A DNA stretch of 59,896 bases from Acidimicrobiia bacterium (GTDB taxonomy: Bacteria; Actinomycetota; Acidimicrobiia; Spongiisociales; JAENVV01), in NCBI GenBank assembly GCA_016650365.1, contig JAENVV010000042.1:1-59896 (forward strand), read 5' to 3'. Below the pieces are notes generated by a model. The model was not told the DNA's origin and ran no database searches. It was given only the letters and a program-made list of their open reading frames with translations. Each line of letters starts with the position of its first letter. Position 1 is the stretch's first letter. A program made the translations under genes and the position numbers. Positions 1-9,359 of this stretch are shown in pieces.

Positions 1-385
1 ACCGGATCGTGAACTCGGCGACCTGCCAGAGCCGCCAACCGGTATGGCCGTCGACGCCGGAGTCCAGTTGGACCTATCCGACGCCGCCGCCGAACGTGAT
101 GTGGATGCCGTACAGTCAGCTGCCGCCTTCGCCGACTCGGATGTGGCCATGTCCGCTCCCCGCCCGGTCCCGGTCGGCAGCAGTGCAGGAGCCACCCACG
201 CGCCGATGGCTGAAGGCGACCCAGGTCGCCATGGCCCGGCAATGACCAAGGCCAACGTCGCCGACGTAGCCCTGTCGGAGAACATGGGCGACGCCCCGGT
301 CTGCTCCAACTGCGGCCACATGACCGTCCGCAACGGCTCGTGCTACGTCTGCCTGACGTGTGGTGATACGACTGGGTGTAGTTAG
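1..385 (+). CDS. nrdJ: Class II (adenosylcobalamin-dependent) ribonucleotide reductase, C-terminal end only; the 5' part lies outside the window
   Basis: Frame 2 is open from nt 2 to the TAG at 383-385. The tail '...GDAPVCSNCGHMTVRNGSCYVCLTCGDTTGCS' is the Cys-rich C-terminus I associate with actinobacterial NrdJ. Confidence 0.7.
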   Translation, partial: PDRELGDLPEPPTGMAVDAGVQLDLSDAAAERDVDAVQSAAAFADSDVAMSAPRPVPVGSSAGATHAPMAEGDPGRHGPAMTKANVADVALSENMGDAPVCSNCGHMTVRNGSCYVCLTCGDTTGCS

Positions 386-394
386 GCCCGTGTC

Positions 395-1870
395 GTGGCC
401 GGGATACCAACCGAGGAGGAGTTAGTCAGCTCACTGCGAGCCGAAAGTCGACGCCAGGGCGACGCGATTCTCAGTGATCCATATAGATGGCGTGACTTAA
501 AGGCTCAAGAAACACTCACCGTTGAGTTGACGCGACAACGATTCGTCGAGTCTCGATCGCCTGGGCGCGCTCACACCTTTCGGTGGCCGAAAGAGGCTTC
601 TGGGTATCGACCGATGGCATGGATGGATCCATTCGACCAAATCAGCTACCACGCTCTAGTCGGGCGATTGGTGGAGCCCATCGTCGGATCGACCGACAAA
701 GAATCGGTCTTTTCTTGCGGCATTAGTTCGGGACCCCCGCTTTGGATGTTGCAGCCCATCTATGGGGCGCTGGGGCAACGCCGCGCTCGTGGGCTAGACC
801 TACTCGACGAGCACCGCTATCTAGGGACAATGGATATCGCCAACTTTTACCCAACTGTCAAGCCCGCCGCGCTGTCCAACGTCTTAGCGGATCTTGGGTG
901 CGACGTGTCGAGTGTCGAACAGCAGGTCCAATGGTTGTCCGATCTTGACCAGGTATCTGGAGTCAAAGGGTTGCCGGTCGGTCCGCAAGCGAGCCAGATC
1001 CTCGCAAACGGCCTGCTGATCCCCACGGACACAGGTCTTGCAAACCTGGGCGTCCCCTTCATTCGATGGGTCGACGACACGTGGTTGTTCGTGGATAGCG
1101 AGGAACAATTCCGAGCGATCAAAGATTCGTACGAGTCCTGGCTGGATAATCTCGGGCTGCGTCTAAACGAGCAGAAATCACGCGTATTAGAGGGAGCCGA
1201 CGCCGAGAATGAAGTTGTACGGTCGGCGATCCAATACTTTGGTGAGCAACTCAACGACCCTGGGCCGGAAGGACTCCGAGCTGCTCTCGCGCTGTGGGAG
1301 TACGCGTTGGAGGATCCGGTCCAGCGCAGAACCGAACTTCGGCGATCGTTAGGAGTTCTCACAACATACGAAAGCCGAATACCGTTCGATCGACTGGTAA
1401 CCGACGATTCGCTCCTACGGATAGCGCCCTTTAAGTGGCGGGCAAATCTCGCCCGCCTCGCCGGTCGACGCGAAACCCGCTCAGAAGTGGAGAGCTGGCT
1501 CCTGGAGATCGCATGTGATACCCCAAGCCCCGACGAGGCCTATAGGGTCCTGCTCGCGCTACAGGCGCTCTCGAATATATCTATCGACCGGGACTCCGGA
1601 ACAAAACTGTTAGATCTCGCGACCATGAGCGGCGGGTGGGCAGGCCCTGTACGCGTCTGGGCGGCATACATCTGGGGGAAGTCGCAAGCGTTCAAGGCAG
1701 AACGAGCGATCGACCAAGTCGAAGAACAGGGCGAATTCGGCACTAGGCGTGCCTTTGCCATGACCCTGGAACAGCAGAGTGGTCATCGCAAAATGGGCAA
1801 ATGGATCCGGCAAGTCGAACTCGCAGACACCGAACTCGGACCCACCGCTCGATTACTCGAAGCCGCGTAG
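395..1870 (+). CDS. Stand-alone reverse transcriptase (UG/Abi- or DRT-like) with a ~225-aa helical C-terminal extension
   Basis: Ordered RT motifs: 'YRPMAWMDPFDQISYHALVGRLVEPI', 'LGTMDIANFYPTV' (motif A Asp at nt 833-835), 'GLPVGPQASQILANGLL' (motif B), 'FIRWVDDTWLF' (motif C at nt 1067-1078), 'GLRLNEQKSRV' (motif D/E). GTG start 9 nt after the nrdJ stop. No maturase-X/endonuclease, Cas1 or integrase domain. Confidence 0.85.
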   Translation: MAGIPTEEELVSSLRAESRRQGDAILSDPYRWRDLKAQETLTVELTRQRFVESRSPGRAHTFRWPKEASGYRPMAWMDPFDQISYHALVGRLVEPIVGSTDKESVFSCGISSGPPLWMLQPIYGALGQRRARGLDLLDEHRYLGTMDIANFYPTVKPAALSNVLADLGCDVSSVEQQVQWLSDLDQVSGVKGLPVGPQASQILANGLLIPTDTGLANLGVPFIRWVDDTWLFVDSEEQFRAIKDSYESWLDNLGLRLNEQKSRVLEGADAENEVVRSAIQYFGEQLNDPGPEGLRAALALWEYALEDPVQRRTELRRSLGVLTTYESRIPFDRLVTDDSLLRIAPFKWRANLARLAGRRETRSEVESWLLEIACDTPSPDEAYRVLLALQALSNISIDRDSGTKLLDLATMSGGWAGPVRVWAAYIWGKSQAFKAERAIDQVEEQGEFGTRRAFAMTLEQQSGHRKMGKWIRQVELADTELGPTARLLEAA

Positions 1871-1973
1871 CCATCCTGCTCGCAGTTACGCTCACCGGAA
1901 TTGCAGGGCGGGTTAACGAAGCGGACGCAACCTACCGATAACCTATGCTCGGTCTGACAAGGAGATGGTAGAG

Positions 1974-3326
1974 ATGCAGCGAGCGCGAATCATCCCGGTG
2001 TCGGGAATCAGCAGCGACAAGGAAGCGGAACAGAGGGCCGCTTCGGCACTCCTCGCGGTGCTCACGGTCGTCCGGGATCTCTCGAGTGAGCTGCTTTCAC
2101 CGCTCGGCGCATCACGGGCAGCAAAGGCGAACGTCGAGTGTTTCACAGAAGTCGTCTTCAAGGTCGCCGGAAAGCCAGTCCGACCGGACGGCCTGATCCG
2201 AGTGTCATTTGGAAAAGCGGTCTGGACTGCTCTCGTTGAGTTCAAGACCGGTCCCACGAGACTGAACGCCGACCAAATCAACGATTACTGGGCCTTGGCC
2301 CGCGATCAAAAGTTTGACCACGTAATCACGATTAGCAATGAGCTCAGCCCTGTCCCGGGTCAACACCCAACGGATGGTCTCAAGGTGCGTTCGAATAGCC
2401 CGGTCCAAGTAACGCATTACTCGTGGACCGCAATCTTGACATCTGCCATCAAGATCAAACAGCACCGCGGTGTCGCTGACCCGGAGCAAGCCTGGATCCT
2501 CGAAGAGCTCATCAGATATCTTGAACACCCAAGTTCTGGGGCGCTCGCCTTCAACGACATGGGACCCGGCTGGACAACGGCGCGAGACAAGGCCCGCCTC
2601 GGCACTCTTAGTCACAAGGACTCTGAAGCAACGGAGTTCGCAGGCAACTTTGAGCAACTTGCGCGCTACGCAGCTCTACTGCTCGGCTCGAAAGTGGGAG
2701 AAGATGTGGATGTTGTCTACCCTCGCAACCAGAAGGATGCCGCATCACGATTGAAGGCGCTGATAGCGTCAGTGTGCGATTCAGGTGTCGCAGCAACCGA
2801 GTTAAAGATCCCCGACACTGCCGGAACACTTTCCGTAACTGCGGATCTGAGGGCGAGTCAGATCCATGCCCAAACCACGATTACTGCGCCTTCCGACCGG
2901 GGAGCGAAAGGCCGAAACACGTGGTTGGTCAACCAGCTAAGCAATGCGCCAGACTCGCTCATCATTGACGCCTACTGCAAGAACGCCCGTCAACCACAGT
3001 CCTGCTCGTTGGCGGCCCTTCGAGACGACCGCGGAGCGAATATCGCCGATACCAAGAACCCACCCACGAAGTACCGACTCACCAAGAGCATTTCAATGGG
3101 GCAAGGTCGGAAAGCCGGTGGCAAATCTCCCGGATTCATCGACTCGACGTTGCAGGCGATCGCCGACTTCTACTCGACGGTTCTACAGGACATAACGGAG
3201 TGGCATCCAAAGGCACCCCGGATAGAGGACCGGCCAGCTCCGACTCCCCCAACAAGCCTGCCAGCCGTGGAGGAGCCCTCTCTATACGAACGGTATTGGG
3301 TCAGCCCACCGCCAACAAGCGAATGA
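1974..3326 (+). CDS. PD-(D/E)XK (restriction-endonuclease-fold)-like protein with a large uncharacterised C-terminal region and Pro-rich tail; putative partner/effector of the RT
   Basis: N-terminal 'EAEQRAASALLAVL ... PDGLIRV ... ALVEFKTG ... QINDYWALA' fits the E-PD-ExK-Q nuclease core pattern (Asp 2187-2189, Glu 2238-2240, Lys 2244-2246). AAGGAG at 1959-1964 sits 9 nt before the ATG at 1974, so the ATG at 1965 is too close to the RBS. Same strand as the RT, 94-103 nt downstream. Confidence 0.6.
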   Translation: MQRARIIPVSGISSDKEAEQRAASALLAVLTVVRDLSSELLSPLGASRAAKANVECFTEVVFKVAGKPVRPDGLIRVSFGKAVWTALVEFKTGPTRLNADQINDYWALARDQKFDHVITISNELSPVPGQHPTDGLKVRSNSPVQVTHYSWTAILTSAIKIKQHRGVADPEQAWILEELIRYLEHPSSGALAFNDMGPGWTTARDKARLGTLSHKDSEATEFAGNFEQLARYAALLLGSKVGEDVDVVYPRNQKDAASRLKALIASVCDSGVAATELKIPDTAGTLSVTADLRASQIHAQTTITAPSDRGAKGRNTWLVNQLSNAPDSLIIDAYCKNARQPQSCSLAALRDDRGANIADTKNPPTKYRLTKSISMGQGRKAGGKSPGFIDSTLQAIADFYSTVLQDITEWHPKAPRIEDRPAPTPPTSLPAVEEPSLYERYWVSPPPTSE

Positions 3327-3334
3327 CCGCACTC

Positions 3335-3369
3335 CGGTCCGTTTCGACCCGTGCTTGGGTTACGGACCG
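3335..3369. terminator. Hairpin between convergent genes (possible bidirectional terminator)
   Basis: CGGTCCGT (3335-3342) pairs with ACGGACCG (3362-3369), with a 19-nt loop holding an inner ACCC/GGGT pairing. It lies 9 nt after the stop of 1974-3326 and overlaps the stop of the minus-strand lipoprotein gene. No U-tract. Confidence 0.3.
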
Positions 3370-5027
3370 AGCATGGTCCAACGCCAGGCATCAATAGTGA
3401 AGGGTGCGTCGCCAGCGCCGTAACAGCATGTGGACCCCCACATCAGGACTTCGTCGCCGGTCCAAGTCATATCGAGGTCTGAGCCCTGCCCTGGCATGTC
3501 GAGCATGACCCAGCTGGCGTCCACGCTCGGAAGCCAGGCGGCATCAGTCCACTGTGGCACCAGGATGCCCGACCCAACGTCGATCGCACCTGAAGCACCT
3601 TCGGCACCGGTCAGCGGAATCGGGTCGATCTCGCTCCACGCGTCCGACCCGAAATCGAACGCCATCGTTGGATGATCGCGATCCTCCCACAAGATGAGCT
3701 GGCCGTCGATCACCGCCGACTGATTGGCCAACCCACAATCCGCATAGGTATCGGTCGATAAATCGACCTTGGGCAGCGGATCCCATTCGACGCCATTCCA
3801 TCTAGCGACCAGGCGTCCCGAGCAGACCGGCGTGTCCAGACCGACTGCGATCAGCCCGCCGCTGGCTGACAGAAGGTTGCCCTCCCACCGTCCGGGCCCG
3901 CCGAATCCAGGAGCGGGTAGCGTGCTCCACTCGCCGGTAGTGAGACTGAGCGTAGAGATCCCATCGGCAGTCCAAATCGCCACCATCGAACCGGTCCAAT
4001 GGATGTGCGAATCGCCGGCGACATTGATTCCATCGCCGATGGTTGTCCATGTATTCTGATCCGGCTCGTAAGCCATCGTGGCTAGTTGTCCCACCACAAC
4101 CATGCGATGCTCGGCCCACACTGCTGCGGTCAGCTGGCGGGTATCGACCAGGTCGGGCGGCAGCAATCGCCATGTAGAAGTGTCTGGAGCAAAGGCCGCT
4201 CCACCCACTAAATTCGGCGGCGCATCAGCAACCGATCCACCCCAGACGATCATCTCGTCGCCGGTCCACATGACTTGATGCCCACCGCGCGGAACGAGCG
4301 GCCCTGGATCGACGTACCAGGCGTCGGTCGTCGGCCTGGCCGCCCGCGACTCAAGCAGCAAGAAGTCATCGTCAGAAGCCTCGACATTGGTCAGCTGAAC
4401 AGCGTGCTTGTCACTACAGGTTGCCGCCAGCGTTTGGCAACCACGGCGCACCGAGAACGTCGAATACTGAACCTGCATGACTGTCTCAGTCTCTATGTCG
4501 GTCGCCCATCGCAACGGCGGCTCCAGGTCCAGGATCGGCATGCCGGATGATTCCCGCCCGATGACGGCTTCAACTGCCTGGCGCAGCTCTCGCTCGTCGG
4601 GTGGCACGCCCGAGATTCGCACGGTCCAATCACCGACCGGGAGCAGGTACGCATCACCCTCCCATGAGGGTGTCCCGGCCGCCTCCGATTCTACCGACAC
4701 GTCAAGGAAGGCCGAAACGTCGCCCAACTCGGCGGCGATCACCGCCGTCACTCCCCCGATCATCTCGTTCGGGCGGTTCGGTTCAATGATCACCGTGTAG
4801 CTCGTTCCGTCAGGCAAGGCACCAACGAAGGCCCGATTGCTGTCGGTCTGCGGCACGGTGGGATCGTTCGCCCGCTGGGTTGGAGTGGTGCTCGTTGTTG
4901 AAGGCGCCGAGGTGCTCGACGATTGTGGGATGAGAATGGTCGACGTTGTCGGAGCGCTGCCCCCGGTACAGGCACCCGCCAGCACGAGAATGGCGGTGGC
5001 AACAGCCACCAATGACCCCTGTTTCAT
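3360..5027 (-). CDS. Secreted lipoprotein with Ser/Thr/Pro linker and Kelch-like beta-propeller repeats
   Basis: 'MKQGSLVAVATAILVLAGAC' is a lipobox signal (start moved to the internal ATG at 5027). Repeated 'W.G.E...WGG'-type blades: 'MWTGDEMIVWGG', 'VWAEHRMVVVG', 'HWTGSMVAIW', 'TWTGDEVLMWG'. Confidence 0.7.
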   Translation of the reverse strand: MKQGSLVAVATAILVLAGACTGGSAPTTSTILIPQSSSTSAPSTTSTTPTQRANDPTVPQTDSNRAFVGALPDGTSYTVIIEPNRPNEMIGGVTAVIAAELGDVSAFLDVSVESEAAGTPSWEGDAYLLPVGDWTVRISGVPPDERELRQAVEAVIGRESSGMPILDLEPPLRWATDIETETVMQVQYSTFSVRRGCQTLAATCSDKHAVQLTNVEASDDDFLLLESRAARPTTDAWYVDPGPLVPRGGHQVMWTGDEMIVWGGSVADAPPNLVGGAAFAPDTSTWRLLPPDLVDTRQLTAAVWAEHRMVVVGQLATMAYEPDQNTWTTIGDGINVAGDSHIHWTGSMVAIWTADGISTLSLTTGEWSTLPAPGFGGPGRWEGNLLSASGGLIAVGLDTPVCSGRLVARWNGVEWDPLPKVDLSTDTYADCGLANQSAVIDGQLILWEDRDHPTMAFDFGSDAWSEIDPIPLTGAEGASGAIDVGSGILVPQWTDAAWLPSVDASWVMLDMPGQGSDLDMTWTGDEVLMWGSTCCYGAGDAPFTIDAWRWTMLGP

Positions 5028-5120
5028 GGCTTGAACATACCTGATACTGCCTTCGGAATTGGCGATCAAAGGCACGAGGCCCTGAACAGATCGTGATCAC
5101 GAATCCTCCATACAGACCCC

Positions 5121-5149
5121 TTGACGAGTACACAGCTTTAGGCCATAAT
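5121..5149 (+). promoter_or_regulatory. SigA-type promoter TTGACG-N17-CATAAT driving a leaderless HNH transcript
   Basis: TTGACG at 5121-5126, 17-nt spacer, CATAAT at 5144-5149. The ATG at 5157 follows after a 7-nt spacer, which is the expected transcription start. Confidence 0.45.
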
Positions 5150-5164
5150 CGAACATATGTTCGA
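5149..5164. promoter_or_regulatory. LexA (SOS) box TCGAACATATGTTCGA
   Basis: Perfect 16-nt palindrome matching the actinobacterial TCGAAC-N4-GTTCGA consensus. It overlaps the last base of the -10 hexamer and the ATG of the HNH gene. Confidence 0.7.
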
Positions 5165-6368
5165 TACTAATGAAGGCCGCGACCCTGGAGGCACCGATGA
5201 CGTGCTTGCCATCGCCGTCACGGCTCTAGCCTGGGCCGAGGACGAAGTAGTCGTTGACTTCAACAACGACGAGCTCACGTTGAGCTACGAACAACTCCGC
5301 ATGCTTGGCGACCTCTTCCATGCGCAGGCACAGCGGCGCCTCGCCGTCGTCGACGAGCGCCAGTCGTACAAAACCGACGGCTACACCTCGACGACCGCCT
5401 ACCTGAAGCACCGATTTCGCACCACCGGTGGCCAAGCGATGCGGCAAGTAACCGAGGTAAGGGCGCTTCAGGAGATGCCGCGGACCCGCCACCTCGCTGA
5501 ACTTGGTCGGCTAAGCGGCGATCAAGTGCGGACGCTCATCTCCGCCAAACAATCTGCCCCGGACCAGTTCGCGGCCGACGAAAAGGAACTCTGCGACATC
5601 GCAGAAACGCTGGAATGGGTTGCCGACCTCCGGAAGGTAACAGCCTACTGGCAGCAGGCCGCGGCTCCCGAGCCGTCGTATCCGACGTTGGAAGACCAGC
5701 GAAACGCCTCTTACCTCTATGTCTCGCGAGCCTTTGAGGATATGGTCAAGCTCGATGGCCTCCTCGACCGGGAACGAGGCGCTCAACTTATCGAAGCGAT
5801 CAAGGCCGCCACCCCTGCGCCGATCGAAGGAGAACCGTCCACGCCATCGCAACGTCGAGCTATCGCCCTGTTCGATCTGGTGGTGTCCGACGGCGAGCGG
5901 CCCGCCACCCCGACGATGCTTGTCCATGTGGGCGCCGAAACACTCGGCGATGACTCACCTCGCCTGGCCGAGATCGGACGGGACGTGCTCGAGAAGTACA
6001 CCGTCGATCGACTCGCCTGCGACGCCGATTTCCGGCGGATTGTGTTCGGCCCGGAGTCAGAAATCATCGACGTAGGGCGCCGACTCCGCCTCGTCACGAA
6101 GCCCATGCGCGATGCGGTAGTCGCCAGGGACCGGCACTGCGCCTTCCCCGGATGTGATCGTCCACCACAGTGGTGCGATGCCCATCACATCATCCCCTGG
6201 TGGGAAGGCGGGCCGACCTCGACGGGCAACATGATCCTGCTCTGTCGCCACCACCACTCACTCATCCACGCCGGCAAGTTCACATTGCGCGGCACTGGTC
6301 ACGAACCGCGGTTTTATCGAGCCAACGGCCAACCTCTCGGCCGCATCGAATTCCTCGATACGGGATAG
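5157..6368 (+). CDS. DUF222 domain / HNH endonuclease (13E12-repeat-like)
   Basis: C-terminal 'RDRHCAFPGCDRPPQWCDAHHIIPWWEGGPTSTGNMILLCRHHHSLIH' is an HNH motif. The long helical N-terminal region is typical of actinobacterial DUF222 proteins. Confidence 0.9.
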   Translation: MFDTNEGRDPGGTDDVLAIAVTALAWAEDEVVVDFNNDELTLSYEQLRMLGDLFHAQAQRRLAVVDERQSYKTDGYTSTTAYLKHRFRTTGGQAMRQVTEVRALQEMPRTRHLAELGRLSGDQVRTLISAKQSAPDQFAADEKELCDIAETLEWVADLRKVTAYWQQAAAPEPSYPTLEDQRNASYLYVSRAFEDMVKLDGLLDRERGAQLIEAIKAATPAPIEGEPSTPSQRRAIALFDLVVSDGERPATPTMLVHVGAETLGDDSPRLAEIGRDVLEKYTVDRLACDADFRRIVFGPESEIIDVGRRLRLVTKPMRDAVVARDRHCAFPGCDRPPQWCDAHHIIPWWEGGPTSTGNMILLCRHHHSLIHAGKFTLRGTGHEPRFYRANGQPLGRIEFLDTG

Positions 6369-6436
6369 GGCAGGCAGCGTCCCCACCTATCCGCCATACT
6401 GAATCCGTGCTCAAAACCAAAGTTCCGGTCGAAACG

Positions 6437-6793
6437 ATGAGTGCCGAAATTGCCCGGAAATCGATCACCGTGACTATGTCATCCGAGGCTTCCGAATTCC
6501 TGCGCGATCGAGATGTCCCGCTGGTCGCCGAAGCCGAGATCCTGTTCAGTTGTCTCATCCGCAAGCGACTGACGTTCCGCGATACCTCACCAGATCTTTT
6601 GTCCTGGCCAATCACCGAGAACCTTCATGTCTCGGTCCGCCCGGTCCTCTACGAACTATGCCGCCCCGAAAATGGCGAATCGGAGCCGAACCTGGTCGAT
6701 TTCGCCGTTGCCGATATTGCCGCGCTGGTGCCAAAGTCCTTCCACATCGACATCGCAGACGGCCAACTGACCGGCACGTTCGAACTCGGATAA
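6437..6793 (+). CDS. Hypothetical small protein (118 aa)
   Basis: Internal ATG of the 6170-6793 ORF, chosen because the upstream part overlaps the HNH gene. The codon third-position G/C bias looks coding. No recognisable motif. Confidence 0.4.
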   Translation: MSAEIARKSITVTMSSEASEFLRDRDVPLVAEAEILFSCLIRKRLTFRDTSPDLLSWPITENLHVSVRPVLYELCRPENGESEPNLVDFAVADIAALVPKSFHIDIADGQLTGTFELG

Positions 6794-6802
6794 CGCATTT
6801 CG

Positions 6803-7588
6803 CTAGGACGACGCCGACGTGTAGCTGTTGATGCCGGCCTTCCACGCAATACGTGACACGACTGCGAACGCCACGGTCAGCGCCACCGTCAGAGCGATAT
6901 CTTTGCCCGAGATTCGATCAACCAGGGTTTGGGCCGGAACGGTGATTGCGAACCCGAGCGGGATTATGTAGGACAGCGACAGGCGCATGGCGATCGGATA
7001 GATGGTGACGGGCCAGCGTCCCGCCTCATAACTACCCGTGACCAGTTCGCCGAGTCGACCGATCTTGATCAGCTTGAAAGCCGACGACGTCATGATGAGC
7101 CACATGCTGTAGAGCAACGTCGCCCCACAGGCGAGGAGCAGACCACCGACGAACAATCCGATGAAGGACAGGCCACCGGTGAACTCGCTCAAACCCCAAA
7201 TGATGATGCCGGTGCCTAGCGCCACATCGGTCAACTGCCACACCCGGAAGGTGCGCAGGCTGGTCAGCAGCTGTGAATCAACCGGCTTGACGAGCGGATG
7301 GTCGAAGGTGCCTTCGTCGACCTCTCGAATGGTTTGCTCCATGTTTGGCTTTATGACTGCCCGCATGACCCCGCCAAGAGCGAGGTGCACACCGAGCACG
7401 ACGAACAGTTCCGGCCTGGTCCAACCACCGAGGTTGGTTGTGTATGAAAAGACCAACTGGATCGCCACGATGCCGGTAAGGATCTGGAGGGCGGATTGAA
7501 CCAGCTGGACGAAAAAGTTCAGCCGGTACTGCATCTCGTATTGGGCGGTCAGTTTGATGAACAACCAGCTCAGGCGCATGACTCTCAT
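6803..7588 (-). CDS. ABC-2 family transporter permease (DUF990-like)
   Basis: Multi-TM protein beginning 'MRVMRLSWLFIKLTAQYEMQYRLNFF'. Its ATG at 7588 overlaps the upstream stop (ATGA). Third gene of the ATPase + two-permease operon. Confidence 0.75.
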   Translation of the reverse strand: MRVMRLSWLFIKLTAQYEMQYRLNFFVQLVQSALQILTGIVAIQLVFSYTTNLGGWTRPELFVVLGVHLALGGVMRAVIKPNMEQTIREVDEGTFDHPLVKPVDSQLLTSLRTFRVWQLTDVALGTGIIIWGLSEFTGGLSFIGLFVGGLLLACGATLLYSMWLIMTSSAFKLIKIGRLGELVTGSYEAGRWPVTIYPIAMRLSLSYIIPLGFAITVPAQTLVDRISGKDIALTVALTVAFAVVSRIAWKAGINSYTSASS

Positions 7589-8391
7589 GAGCCGACCGCC
7601 GTATATCTGCGAACGGCCCTTTTCCAAACCAGACCAATGCTGGTCGCGAGCACGACGATCCATCCTGCTTGAAATATCCAACCGATGAACACATCCGACG
7701 GCGCCAGCCGACCGATGATCACTTCGATCGGAAACTGGAACGTCCACTTGAAGGGTAAGAAATCAGAGATCGACTGGACCCATTCGGGCATCACCGACAT
7801 CGGCACCAGCCTGCCAGACAGGAGGATCTCGCTCATAATGACGACCTCGAACAGAGCCGCCACCCGGGTGGTCCAGAAGCCGATCAGTCCGAGGAGGAAC
7901 TGATAGCTGGCCCGAACGAAGTAGGCACCCCATAATGCAAAAAACCCGAACACGAACGTCCGCCAGGTGAAGACGATGTTCGGATGAAACACGAGAAACA
8001 AGGTGGCTCCGATTGGTAGCCACATGGTGAACCACAGGAACTTCATTCCCACGAAATTCATGGTGGATCGCCAATACACGCTGGTCGGATGCATAAGCAT
8101 GTGTGAGACCCGCCCGAACTGAATCCACCATTCCCACACATACGGGGTCAGCGCCAGGTTCATAGCTCGCACCAGCGTCCACACGACGTAATACGCGACG
8201 ATCTCGTCCGAGGAGTAGTTGCCGATCGACCCCGATTGAAGCGAGACCGTACGCCATACGATGAGCAACACGATCGGCTCGATCAGGAACCCCAACAGCT
8301 GGAGAAATCCCACGACGCGAAACTGCATCTCCTGAAGCAGACCAACTTTGGCTTCCGCCCAGCCAACCGAAATGAGACCGCGCAGGTTCAT
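7585..8391 (-). CDS. ABC-2 family transporter permease (DUF990-like)
   Basis: Multi-TM protein 'MNLRGLISVGWAEAKVGLLQEMQFRVVGFL...'. ATGA overlap with the ATPase gene. Confidence 0.8.
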   Translation of the reverse strand: MNLRGLISVGWAEAKVGLLQEMQFRVVGFLQLLGFLIEPIVLLIVWRTVSLQSGSIGNYSSDEIVAYYVVWTLVRAMNLALTPYVWEWWIQFGRVSHMLMHPTSVYWRSTMNFVGMKFLWFTMWLPIGATLFLVFHPNIVFTWRTFVFGFFALWGAYFVRASYQFLLGLIGFWTTRVAALFEVVIMSEILLSGRLVPMSVMPEWVQSISDFLPFKWTFQFPIEVIIGRLAPSDVFIGWIFQAGWIVVLATSIGLVWKRAVRRYTAVGS

Positions 8392-9359
8392 GATTCGTCT
8401 GCGTTGAACGCCATGTCGATGATGTCCTCGAGCGGTACATTCTCGATGCTCAGGTCATACACTCCCCGCGCCAAGAGCAACGACGCCACCTCGGCCACGT
8501 TGTCGTTGGGTACCTTCAACATGGTCCGTTCCGGCGTCGCTTCGACAGAGTCGCATAGCCGGGCCATCTCGTCGGACACCTCGTTGCCACCAAACGAGAT
8601 CAGTCGATGAGACACGAACTTGCTTCGGAGGCCGCCAATATCGCCGTCGTACAGCATCGTGCCTTCGTGGATGACGATGATGCGATCACACAGGGCTTCG
8701 ACATCAGCCATGTAGTGGCTCGTCAGGATGATCGAGGCACCGGATTCCTTCTGGTAGTTGGCGATGAACCCGCGCAATCGTTTCTGCATCGTTACATCAA
8801 GACCGAGGGTTGGCTCGTCGAGGAACAACACTTCGGGCGCATGGAGGAGCGATGCAATCACTTCCACCTTCATCCGCTCCCCCAGCGATAGATTGCGGAT
8901 CGGCTTTGTGATGAGGTCACCAACGTCAAGCAGTTCGACGAACTCGTCGCGACGGCGCACAAAGTCGGCTTTGGGGACTTGATAGATGGCTCGTTGCAGC
9001 TCGAAACTGTCAGACACCGGCAAGTCCCATTGCAGGGAGTTACGGTTGCCCATCACGAGGGCAATCCGACGGCGATAGGCCTCCTCCCGCAGTCGGGGAT
9101 CGAAGCCGAGGACCCGGGCCTGGCCTGACGTCGGGTACAACAACCCGGACAACATTTTTAAGGTCGTGGACTTGCCGGCTCCATTGGGACCGAGGAACCC
9201 GATCAACTGGCCGTCCGGTACCTCAAAGGACACCTGATCGACGGCCAACACTTCGCGGAACTCCCGCTTGAAGAGGCTGCGGACCGAGTTACGGAGCCCT
9301 GACTCGCGCACCGGTACCTTGTAGGTTTTGGAGAGATCGGTCACTTCGATGGCAGCCAT
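8388..9359 (-). CDS. ABC transporter ATP-binding protein
   Basis: Walker A 'GPNGAGKST', signature 'LSLGERMKV', Walker B 'LFLDEPTLGLD'. Confidence 0.9.
   Translation of the reverse strand: MAAIEVTDLSKTYKVPVRESGLRNSVRSLFKREFREVLAVDQVSFEVPDGQLIGFLGPNGAGKSTTLKMLSGLLYPTSGQARVLGFDPRLREEAYRRRIALVMGNRNSLQWDLPVSDSFELQRAIYQVPKADFVRRRDEFVELLDVGDLITKPIRNLSLGERMKVEVIASLLHAPEVLFLDEPTLGLDVTMQKRLRGFIANYQKESGASIILTSHYMADVEALCDRIIVIHEGTMLYDGDIGGLRSKFVSHRLISFGGNEVSDEMARLCDSVEATPERTMLKVPNDNVAEVASLLLARGVYDLSIENVPLEDIIDMAFNADES

Follow-up and report, generated by a model that had tools for sequence, protein, structure and literature searches.

Does a reverse transcriptase (RT) gene with a nuclease-fold gene beside it on the same strand make up an RT-based immunity system, or are these two accessory genes which have each come to lie there on their own? 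The question is raised by one end of the 59,896-nt Acidimicrobiia contig JAENVV010000042.1 (the window, to which all coordinates refer except those preceded by an L-number, which designates a locus of a relative used for comparison), where the RT gene and a second open reading frame (ORF), ORF2, follow the 3' end of nrdJ, the gene for the class II, B12-dependent ribonucleotide reductase (RNR). In the initial annotation of the window the RT and ORF2 were taken for a candidate two-gene defence module of an undescribed kind; in the analysis reported here both ORFs and the motifs quoted for them proved to be real, and a novel two-gene immunity system made up of an RT and a nuclease was not supported. 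The explanation that we favour, with moderate confidence, is that two unrelated accessory genes stand behind nrdJ, namely a single-gene class 1 UG/Abi RT and an independent ORF2. Also found was a conserved association of the RT with nrdJ, which the initial annotation had overlooked.

Identity of the reverse transcriptase

Judged by sequence and predicted fold, the RT is a stand-alone enzyme of the class 1 UG/Abi type, in which an RT domain is joined to an alpha-helical repeat domain. The protein carries the RT motifs YRPMAWMDPFDQISYHALVGRLVEPI, LGTMDIANFYPTV, GLPVGPQASQILANGLL, FIRWVDDTWLF and GLRLNEQKSRV, with WVDD as the catalytic YxDD-type motif, and its match to Pfam RVT_1 (4e-14) exceeds the curated cut-off. 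D147 of motif A, G192, P194, the catalytic D227 and D228, and K261 are unchanged in an alignment of 64 RT relatives whose identity goes down to 21%. The GTG start is backed by alignment to the N-termini of RT homologues, and at the other end of the protein the C-terminal domain is kept through its final residue among the homologues of the clade. In the AlphaFold2 (AF2) model (pLDDT 96.4, pTM 0.94) residues 267–490 form 13 consecutive helices as assigned by DSSP, which agrees with the C-terminal helical region of about 225 residues that had been read from the sequence alone.

When the model was compared with known structures using Foldseek, the best full-length match was DRT6 (9wy8; E 7e-12, TM 0.63/0.63), further full-length matches being Abi-P2 (7r08), DRT4 (9vdo), UG15 (9l9s), AbiK (7r07) and AbiA (8oz7), and these class 1 structures outranked the RTs of group II introns, retrons, diversity-generating retroelements (DGRs) and DRT9. 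What defines UG/Abi RTs of class 1 is a fused alpha-Rep domain, which is needed for UG15 immunity (PMC9226505). The architecture of an RT domain followed by helical repeats, as well as a length of about 490 residues, is common to the window RT and to DRT6 (UG12), DRT4 (UG15), Abi-P2, AbiK and AbiA, and the single-gene organisation is that of DRT4, DRT6, AbiK and Abi-P2, although sequence identity to the class 1 structures is 10–15% and the window RT occupies a fixed spot behind nrdJ in an Acidimicrobiia-like host, as opposed to the defence islands and prophage hotspots of class 1 RTs.

All of the nine best PADLOC models for the RT belong to class 1 (Drt8, UG23, UG33, UG20, UG22, UG21, UG32, UG19 and UG31; 5e-37 to 2e-14), and no named UG or DRT model in PADLOC is matched over its full length. 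The match to Drt8 (5e-37, 126 bits) is limited to the RT domain (protein residues 39–294 against positions 37–283 of 493 in the model), with UG23 (6e-31, model 6–320 of 489) and UG33 (model 25–363 of 490) close behind and reaching partly into the helical domain. The profiles next best after Drt8 are those of UG23, UG33, UG20–22 and UG32, groups whose defence status has been given as 'inconclusive' (PMC9226505); the window RT scores far under their in-family level, and no NUDIX, SLATT or HEPN partner is found near it. Group II and retron models score 1e-9 to 1e-12, well under their cut-offs, and the NCBIfam Drt models are likewise far under theirs (41 bits for Drt4 against a cut-off of 450 bits).

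Searched with a profile, a set of 1.84 billion representative proteins yielded 180 clusters of the RT family at E<1e-30, mostly full-length (about 490 residues). Among 64 sampled members of this family the UG23 model was the one matched by 54, and the best score reached by any of them on a UG model was 1.7e-48; as no sampled member exceeds this value, the family would form a distinct and unnamed group within class 1, and the clade to which the window RT belongs is probably new, lying near but outside UG7/DRT8, UG23 and UG33.

The clade is rare, with about 20 RTs known here against more than 1,583 homologues of ORF2. Ten clusters of RT homologues came out of a word-based search covering 5.8 billion proteins, and six metagenome loci hold such homologues. 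A pattern scan of 185,579 species genomes, run with the protein by itself and also with the alignment, revealed no RT relatives, and there were none in the viral-contig scan or by tblastn against phages; tblastn against plasmids gave remote matches to the RT domain and nothing closer. Two RT relatives in the 31–33% identity range were found without nrdJ, one (L023) as cargo of a small integrative HTH_17/AAA_25 element and the other (L024) among PLDc_2, DUF5677, a 1,601-aa methyltransferase-helicase and TraG in a conjugative, defence-like region. In L015 (231–310) there is no in-frame ATG, GTG or TTG upstream of the conserved N-terminus of the RT homologue, for which the gene caller set the start 73 residues late; this homologue may have a non-canonical start or may be damaged.

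ORF2 and its distribution

By its predicted fold ORF2 belongs to the PD-(D/E)XK superfamily and is a predicted nuclease. The protein contains RPDGLIRV...ALVEFKTG, and in its AF2 model (pLDDT 88) the strands at residues 53–90 bear D72, E89 and K91, which together with Q101, N103 and Y105 are unchanged in 53 homologues. The best Foldseek matches in PDB and BFVD were EcoT38I, MspJI, PaqCI, BamHI, viral PD-(D/E)XK proteins, Mrr-like proteins and UL24 proteins, all of them weak (E 1e-3 to 0.4; TM about 0.2 across the whole protein), and the restriction-endonuclease-like core proposed in the initial annotation was thereby recovered as a nuclease fold. The fold of the N-terminal domain is common to ORF2 and to EcoT38I, MspJI, PaqCI and BamHI, and D...E-x-K is invariant in the ORF2 family; in contrast to restriction endonucleases, ORF2 has no adjacent methyltransferase and no sequence-level match to them. 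Searches of Pfam, NCBIfam, PADLOC, PHROGs and PDB with the ORF2 sequence gave no match. The start at ATG 1974 is backed by alignment with the start in L007 and by the ribosome-binding site AAGGAG, which had been noted earlier and was located on the same strand.

Of the more than 1,583 homologues of ORF2, the top 120 are 50–60% identical to it. Where a source is named it lies in Acidimicrobiia or elsewhere in Actinomycetota, and some homologues are labelled 'stress response protein', a label explained by the fusion of the module behind an N-terminal TerD domain in plasmid proteins. In the tblastn search of plasmids, residues 2–419 of ORF2 corresponded to the C-terminal 425 residues or so of TerD family proteins of about 690 residues (35% identity, E 1e-73). 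These fusions (WP_241065045.1 on pLP337 and WP_208869023.1 on pSglau1) share the ORF2 module including its PD...E-x-K core, whereas ORF2 itself and more than 1,500 Acidimicrobiia-type relatives are without the N-terminal TerD domain. Literature searches on TerD-nuclease fusions returned nothing relevant. On pLP337 the fusion adjoins ThiF/E1-like, JAB/MPN and DUF6602 genes, a neighbourhood resembling that of conflict systems.

Genes of the ORF2 family lie recurrently at the edges of compact mobile elements (L001, L002, L004 and L027; Table 1), which suggests that the family is mobile-element cargo, carried by satellite- or prophage-like elements in Actinomycetota. No RT was detectable by tblastn in L001–L005, nor was one found in L025–L027. 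Looked at from the other side, the RT relatives at 40–53% identity have no ORF2 downstream, the genes 3' of the RT being small minus-strand ORFs with DUF222 (L010), APH (L012), a sigma-70 factor (L015) and a 630-aa ORF (L016). The last of these (L016 1675–3567) has no Pfam match and its start is overlapped by the RT stop; the RT of L010, which is 67% identical to that of L016, is without this neighbour. Adjacency of RT and ORF2 was found in the window and in L007 only, where the RTs are 70% and the ORF2 proteins 86% identical. The two-gene module proposed at the outset is thus contradicted by the distribution of both families: homologues of ORF2 are overwhelmingly without an RT and do not accompany RT homologues. 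We infer that ORF2 is a separate gene, independent of the RT, and that the adjacency is lineage-specific.

A third related locus, L006, carries a deletion of about 1.94 kb at 7990–8060 (window positions of about 347–2286), which takes away the final 12 nrdJ codons with a portion of the Cys-rich tail, the entire RT and the codons of ORF2 to about 104, including the nuclease core, and leaves an ORF2 remnant that is 95% identical. L006 was considered as an RT-free 'empty site' and rejected as such, the DNA alignment showing a deletion that cuts into nrdJ and ORF2; it may represent genuine decay or be an artefact of assembly.

Linkage of the reverse transcriptase to nrdJ

The gene directly upstream of the RT was identified as nrdJ because its full-length syntenic counterparts in L006 and L007 carry Ribonuc_red_2_N, Ribonuc_red_lgC and TSCPD (tblastn and Pfam). 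The window fragment, whose C-terminal tail ends ...CSNCGHMTVRNGSCYVCLTCGDTTGCS and whose TAG stop lies at 383–385, is 83% identical to the C-terminus of the L007 NrdJ, and the GTG start of the RT falls 9 nt past this stop in the same reading frame.

In seven of the seven loci with enough upstream DNA (the window, L007–9, L010/11, L012–14, L015, L019 and L022) the 3' end of nrdJ stands directly upstream of the RT on the same strand, and these loci represent at least five lineages, with RTs at most 55% identical to one another. In the window and in L007 the two genes are 9 nt apart, elsewhere 100–260 nt with a strong, GC-rich, terminator-like hairpin in the gap; comparison of the window with L007 gives 89% conservation at the junction and 73% over the whole region. 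The identities of NrdJ and RT co-vary, being 83% and 70% between the window and L007, 67% and 53% between L010 and L013, and 47% and 42% between L007 and L010, and the pair has therefore been inherited or moved jointly across deep divergence. The outer neighbours, those upstream of nrdJ as well as those downstream of the RT, change between lineages, and nrdJ-RT is the only conserved adjacency. An RT next to nrdJ was also sought in the literature, where the searches returned nothing relevant. What stands behind nrdJ in L022 (364–943) is an RT remnant from which the N-terminal 134 residues or so are gone, with a frameshift in motif C (…VPFHPLRG* / MDDTWFFVD…) and an early truncation.

The nrdJ TAG and the RT GTG lie in one frame without a further stop between them in the window (383–397) and in L007 (6429–6443), and from the reading frame it may be formally possible in these two loci for readthrough to yield a NrdJ-RT fusion. 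As a property of the clade such a fusion was rejected, because in the other loci further stops interrupt the frame or the frames differ.

Absence of retroelement and noncoding RNA components

A scan of positions 1–6000 against Rfam at a permissive threshold (E≤1) gave no match to any RNA family, group II introns and retrons included, and no direct repeats resembling the template and variable repeats of DGRs (TR/VR) and no inverted repeats were found in positions 1–9000. No msr/msd or DGR parts accompany the RT, and the protein contains no maturase or endonuclease domain and no Cas1, its C-terminus being alpha-Rep and not maturase X. The description of the RT in the initial annotation as a stand-alone UG/Abi (DRT-like) enzyme free of maturase, Cas1, msr/msd and DGR parts is accordingly upheld by PADLOC, Rfam, AF2, Foldseek and the repeat scan, and the protein does not fall into a group II intron, retron or DGR clade.

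The intergenic regions on both sides of the RT in the clade loci showed neither an alignment nor a common fold in a simple alignment and minimum-free-energy check made without a covariation search, and the sole likeness among the upstream regions is a GC-rich hairpin resembling the nrdJ terminator. A noncoding RNA beside the RT in the style of DRT2, DRT9 or DRT3 was considered and rejected, as there are 9 nt upstream in the window, no Rfam match and no conserved flanks. The lack of a conserved noncoding RNA is consistent with untemplated synthesis but is not proof of it.

Favoured explanation and its rivals

If the RT and ORF2 are two unrelated accessory genes, the RT would act alone as an abortive-infection or antiphage enzyme, making DNA without a template and primed from its own protein by analogy with AbiK, Abi-P2, DRT4 and DRT6, and the DNA product would be toxic or sequestering upon infection. 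Untemplated synthesis has been reported for DRT4 (PMC12783706), PMC13174585 attributes it to class 1 DRTs, and protein-primed, template-independent DNA synthesis is known for AbiK, Abi-P2 and DRT4 (PMC12783706, PMC13174585); by analogy with these enzymes, untemplated and protein-primed synthesis is the most likely activity of the window RT. In the window the RT would almost certainly be co-transcribed with nrdJ, perhaps with translational coupling, in which case it would be made whenever the enzyme that produces deoxynucleoside triphosphates (dNTPs) is made. The ORF2 family would work alone or fused to TerD, moving on mobile elements, and would have arrived beside the RT only in the lineage of the window and L007.

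Several observations weigh against this explanation. The window neighbours are nrdJ, a Kelch-repeat protein, a DUF222-HNH protein and an ABC transporter; none is a known defence gene, and the locus lies in no defence island. The nrdJ-RT arrangement has been held across NrdJ divergence to 37–47% identity, with the RT changing about as slowly as NrdJ, which is not the usual behaviour of a defence gene that is freely exchanged, and the retained adjacency hints at a functional tie. The genomic contexts sampled amount to a handful, and the defence role and enzymology ascribed to the RT, most likely as they are, are drawn from analogy. In addition, the RT and ORF2 are adjacent and co-oriented in both the window and L007, whose RTs are 70% identical, and a single deletion in L006 took the RT and the nuclease core of ORF2 together; a recent RT-nuclease partnership, as in DRT8 variant 1, therefore stays conceivable.

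Such a partnership would be a two-gene defence system assembled recently in the lineage of the window and L007, in which the RT would serve as the sensor or the DNA synthesiser and ORF2, the PD-(D/E)XK protein, as the effector; we regard it as quite improbable. The pairing of an RT with a nuclease fold, which the initial annotation had held to be unnamed, is already published as DRT8/UG7 variant 1, composed of an RT and the PD-(D/E)XK nuclease 'cluster 17', in which both activities are required for defence, and UG/Abi RTs readily swap effectors (PMC9226505). Like DRT8/UG7, the window has a PD-(D/E)XK-fold gene next after its class 1 RT, a likeness at the level of fold, and Drt8 is the top profile match of the RT. 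Conservation of the same-strand adjacency in two loci, the joint loss of the RT and the ORF2 catalytic core in L006, and the carriage of ORF2 relatives on mobile elements in the manner of defence cargo would all fit a system of this kind. The pairing is nevertheless confined to one shallow clade, the other clade RTs being without ORF2 and the sampled outside relatives of ORF2 without an RT, so that the nuclease pairing of DRT8/UG7 variant 1 is not conserved in the clade of the window RT; even a homologue 83% identical to ORF2 (L001) is found elsewhere, with neither an RT nor nrdJ beside it. ORF2 matches no PADLOC defence model and has its own ribosome-binding site behind a 103-nt gap, and the L006 deletion says little about linkage, since it was one event that also cut nrdJ.

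The other neighbour of the RT allows a different pairing, unlikely in our estimation though not far-fetched, in which nrdJ and the RT would be a conserved two-gene unit with RT expression and/or activity coupled to dNTP synthesis, whether through immune DNA synthesis gated by a dNTP pool under the control of NrdJ or a phage RNR, or through a role outside defence, in the metabolism of nucleotides or DNA. The sole adjacency kept in 7/7 loci while both outer flanks reshuffle, the congruent divergence of NrdJ and RT, similar also in magnitude, and the 9-nt gap with its well-conserved junction all speak for such a unit. Links between DRT systems and RNR are also on record: phages that escape DRT9 carry nrdA/nrdB mutations, nucleotide availability governing the synthesis of poly-dA (PMC12483538), and DRT1 has been proposed to be a nucleotide-pool sensor (PMC13275509). 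On the other hand, the RT is dispensable, L006 having lost it by deletion and L022 keeping no more than a frameshifted fragment, its clade is very rare in the databases searched while nrdJ is common, a strong terminator-like hairpin separates the two genes in most loci, and the relatives at 31–33% identity lie away from nrdJ; a single insertion in an ancestor, passed on vertically and lost in places, would suffice without any functional tie. That nrdJ and the RT are a functional pair, with a class 1 Abi-type polymerase expressed with, fuelled or gated by NrdJ-dependent dNTP production, is doubtful. Essentially excluded is the explanation that the RT belongs to a mobile retroelement, be it a group II intron, a retron or a DGR, or to a site-specific element aimed at the nrdJ terminator. 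Selfish elements classically target RNR genes, and group IIC introns sit after terminator-like hairpins, just as the RT lies immediately past such a hairpin in most loci; against this are the lack of any match to an intron, retron or other RNA family, of TR/VR or inverted repeats, of a maturase or endonuclease domain in a protein that ends in alpha-Rep, and of a conserved noncoding flank across the clade loci, as well as the divergence of the RT, which follows that of NrdJ and gives no sign of recent spread.

Other features of the locus

The features of the window and the loci of ORF2 relatives are collected in Table 1. In the spacer between the RT and ORF2, conservation between the window and L007 is confined to about 30 nt nearest the ribosome-binding site. 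The GC content at third codon positions (GC3) is 0.63–0.64 in the RT and ORF2 and 0.70–0.76 in neighbouring genes. This low GC3, together with the deletion of the RT in L006 and the RT pseudogene in L022, marks the accessory character of the genes of the locus; the core gene nrdJ lies directly upstream, however, and the locus is therefore not merely the accessory-looking patch of the initial annotation. No tRNA was found in the window, and a promoter and terminator scan gave a single terminator-like site, located within the RT ORF, which is fewer than in shuffled sequences.

Table 1. Coordinates of features in the window and of ORF2-family loci in relatives
Feature	Position	Strand	Remarks
nrdJ 3' end (class II, B12-dependent ribonucleotide reductase)	2..385	+	Clipped by window edge; Cys-rich C-terminal tail
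Predicted class 1 UG/Abi-type stand-alone RT, 491 aa	395..1870	+	GTG start; RVT_1, PADLOC, AF2, Foldseek
RT fingers/palm, aa ~39–266, motifs 1–7	509..1192	+	Family alignment, Pfam RVT_1, PADLOC
RT motif A, D147	833–835	+	
RT catalytic motif WVDD	1067–1078	+	VDD 1070–1078; D227, D228
RT C-terminal all-helical repeat domain (alpha-Rep/HEAT-like), aa ~267–491	1193..1867	+	~13 helices in the predicted model; AF2/DSSP
RT-ORF2 spacer, 103 nt	1871..1973	+	ORF2 ribosome-binding site AAGGAG at 1959–1964
ORF2, 450 aa	1974..3326	+	Predicted N-terminal PD-(D/E)XK-fold domain, alpha/beta region, disordered Pro-rich tail
ORF2 core residue D72	2187–2189	+	
ORF2 core residue E89	2238–2240	+	
ORF2 core residue K91	2244–2246	+	
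ORF2 homologue, 83%	L001 4313–7356		Beside Terminase_7/HIRAN genes; no RT, no nrdJ
ORF2 homologue, 56%	L002 1603–7365		Beside phage capsid gene
ORF2 homologue, 54%	L004 6001–13464		Beside integrase/HTH_17/Toprim/DUF3987 element
ORF2 homologue, 41%	L027 3–5167		Viral contig; beside capsid, large terminase, WhiB
TerD-fused ORF2 modules, ~35%	L025 6182–8278; L026 6221–8263		Rhodococcus and Streptomyces plasmids; no RT annotated

Downstream of ORF2, a gene on the minus strand (3360–5075) encodes a protein of 571 residues with a hydrophobic N-terminal stretch, a linker rich in Ser, Thr and Pro, and weak matches to Kelch repeats; the protein is kept in synteny in L006 and L007 at 66–72% and, as far as its sequence indicates, is probably a secreted or anchored beta-propeller. 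It is followed by a DUF222 and HNH endonuclease gene (REP13E12-like) at 5157–6368 (+), with counterparts at L006 11584–12849, L007 13253–14325 and L010 10158–11333 (-), and such a gene thus lies 1–3 kb downstream of nrdJ-RT both in the window clade and in the divergent L010 clade (31% identity). The DUF222-HNH family is multicopy in actinobacteria, and its recurrence here may be a coincidence or may reflect a conserved variable region behind nrdJ.

Implications

The PD-(D/E)XK-fold family to which ORF2 belongs, actinobacterial, with more than 1,500 members, associated with mobile elements, sometimes fused to TerD and without a Pfam, NCBIfam or PADLOC model, merits a description of its own. The unnamed and rare class 1 UG/Abi RT clade of uncultured Actinomycetota widens the catalogue of DNA-writing enzymes. 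If the linkage to nrdJ were functional, an Abi-type polymerase would be tied directly to the enzyme that produces the dNTPs of the cell, which would fit with DRT9, and possibly DRT1, reading the nucleotide pool; the nrdJ-coupled RT would then be a host-encoded counterpart of the RNR/dATP dependence of DRT9, or would represent a non-defence role for a UG/Abi RT.

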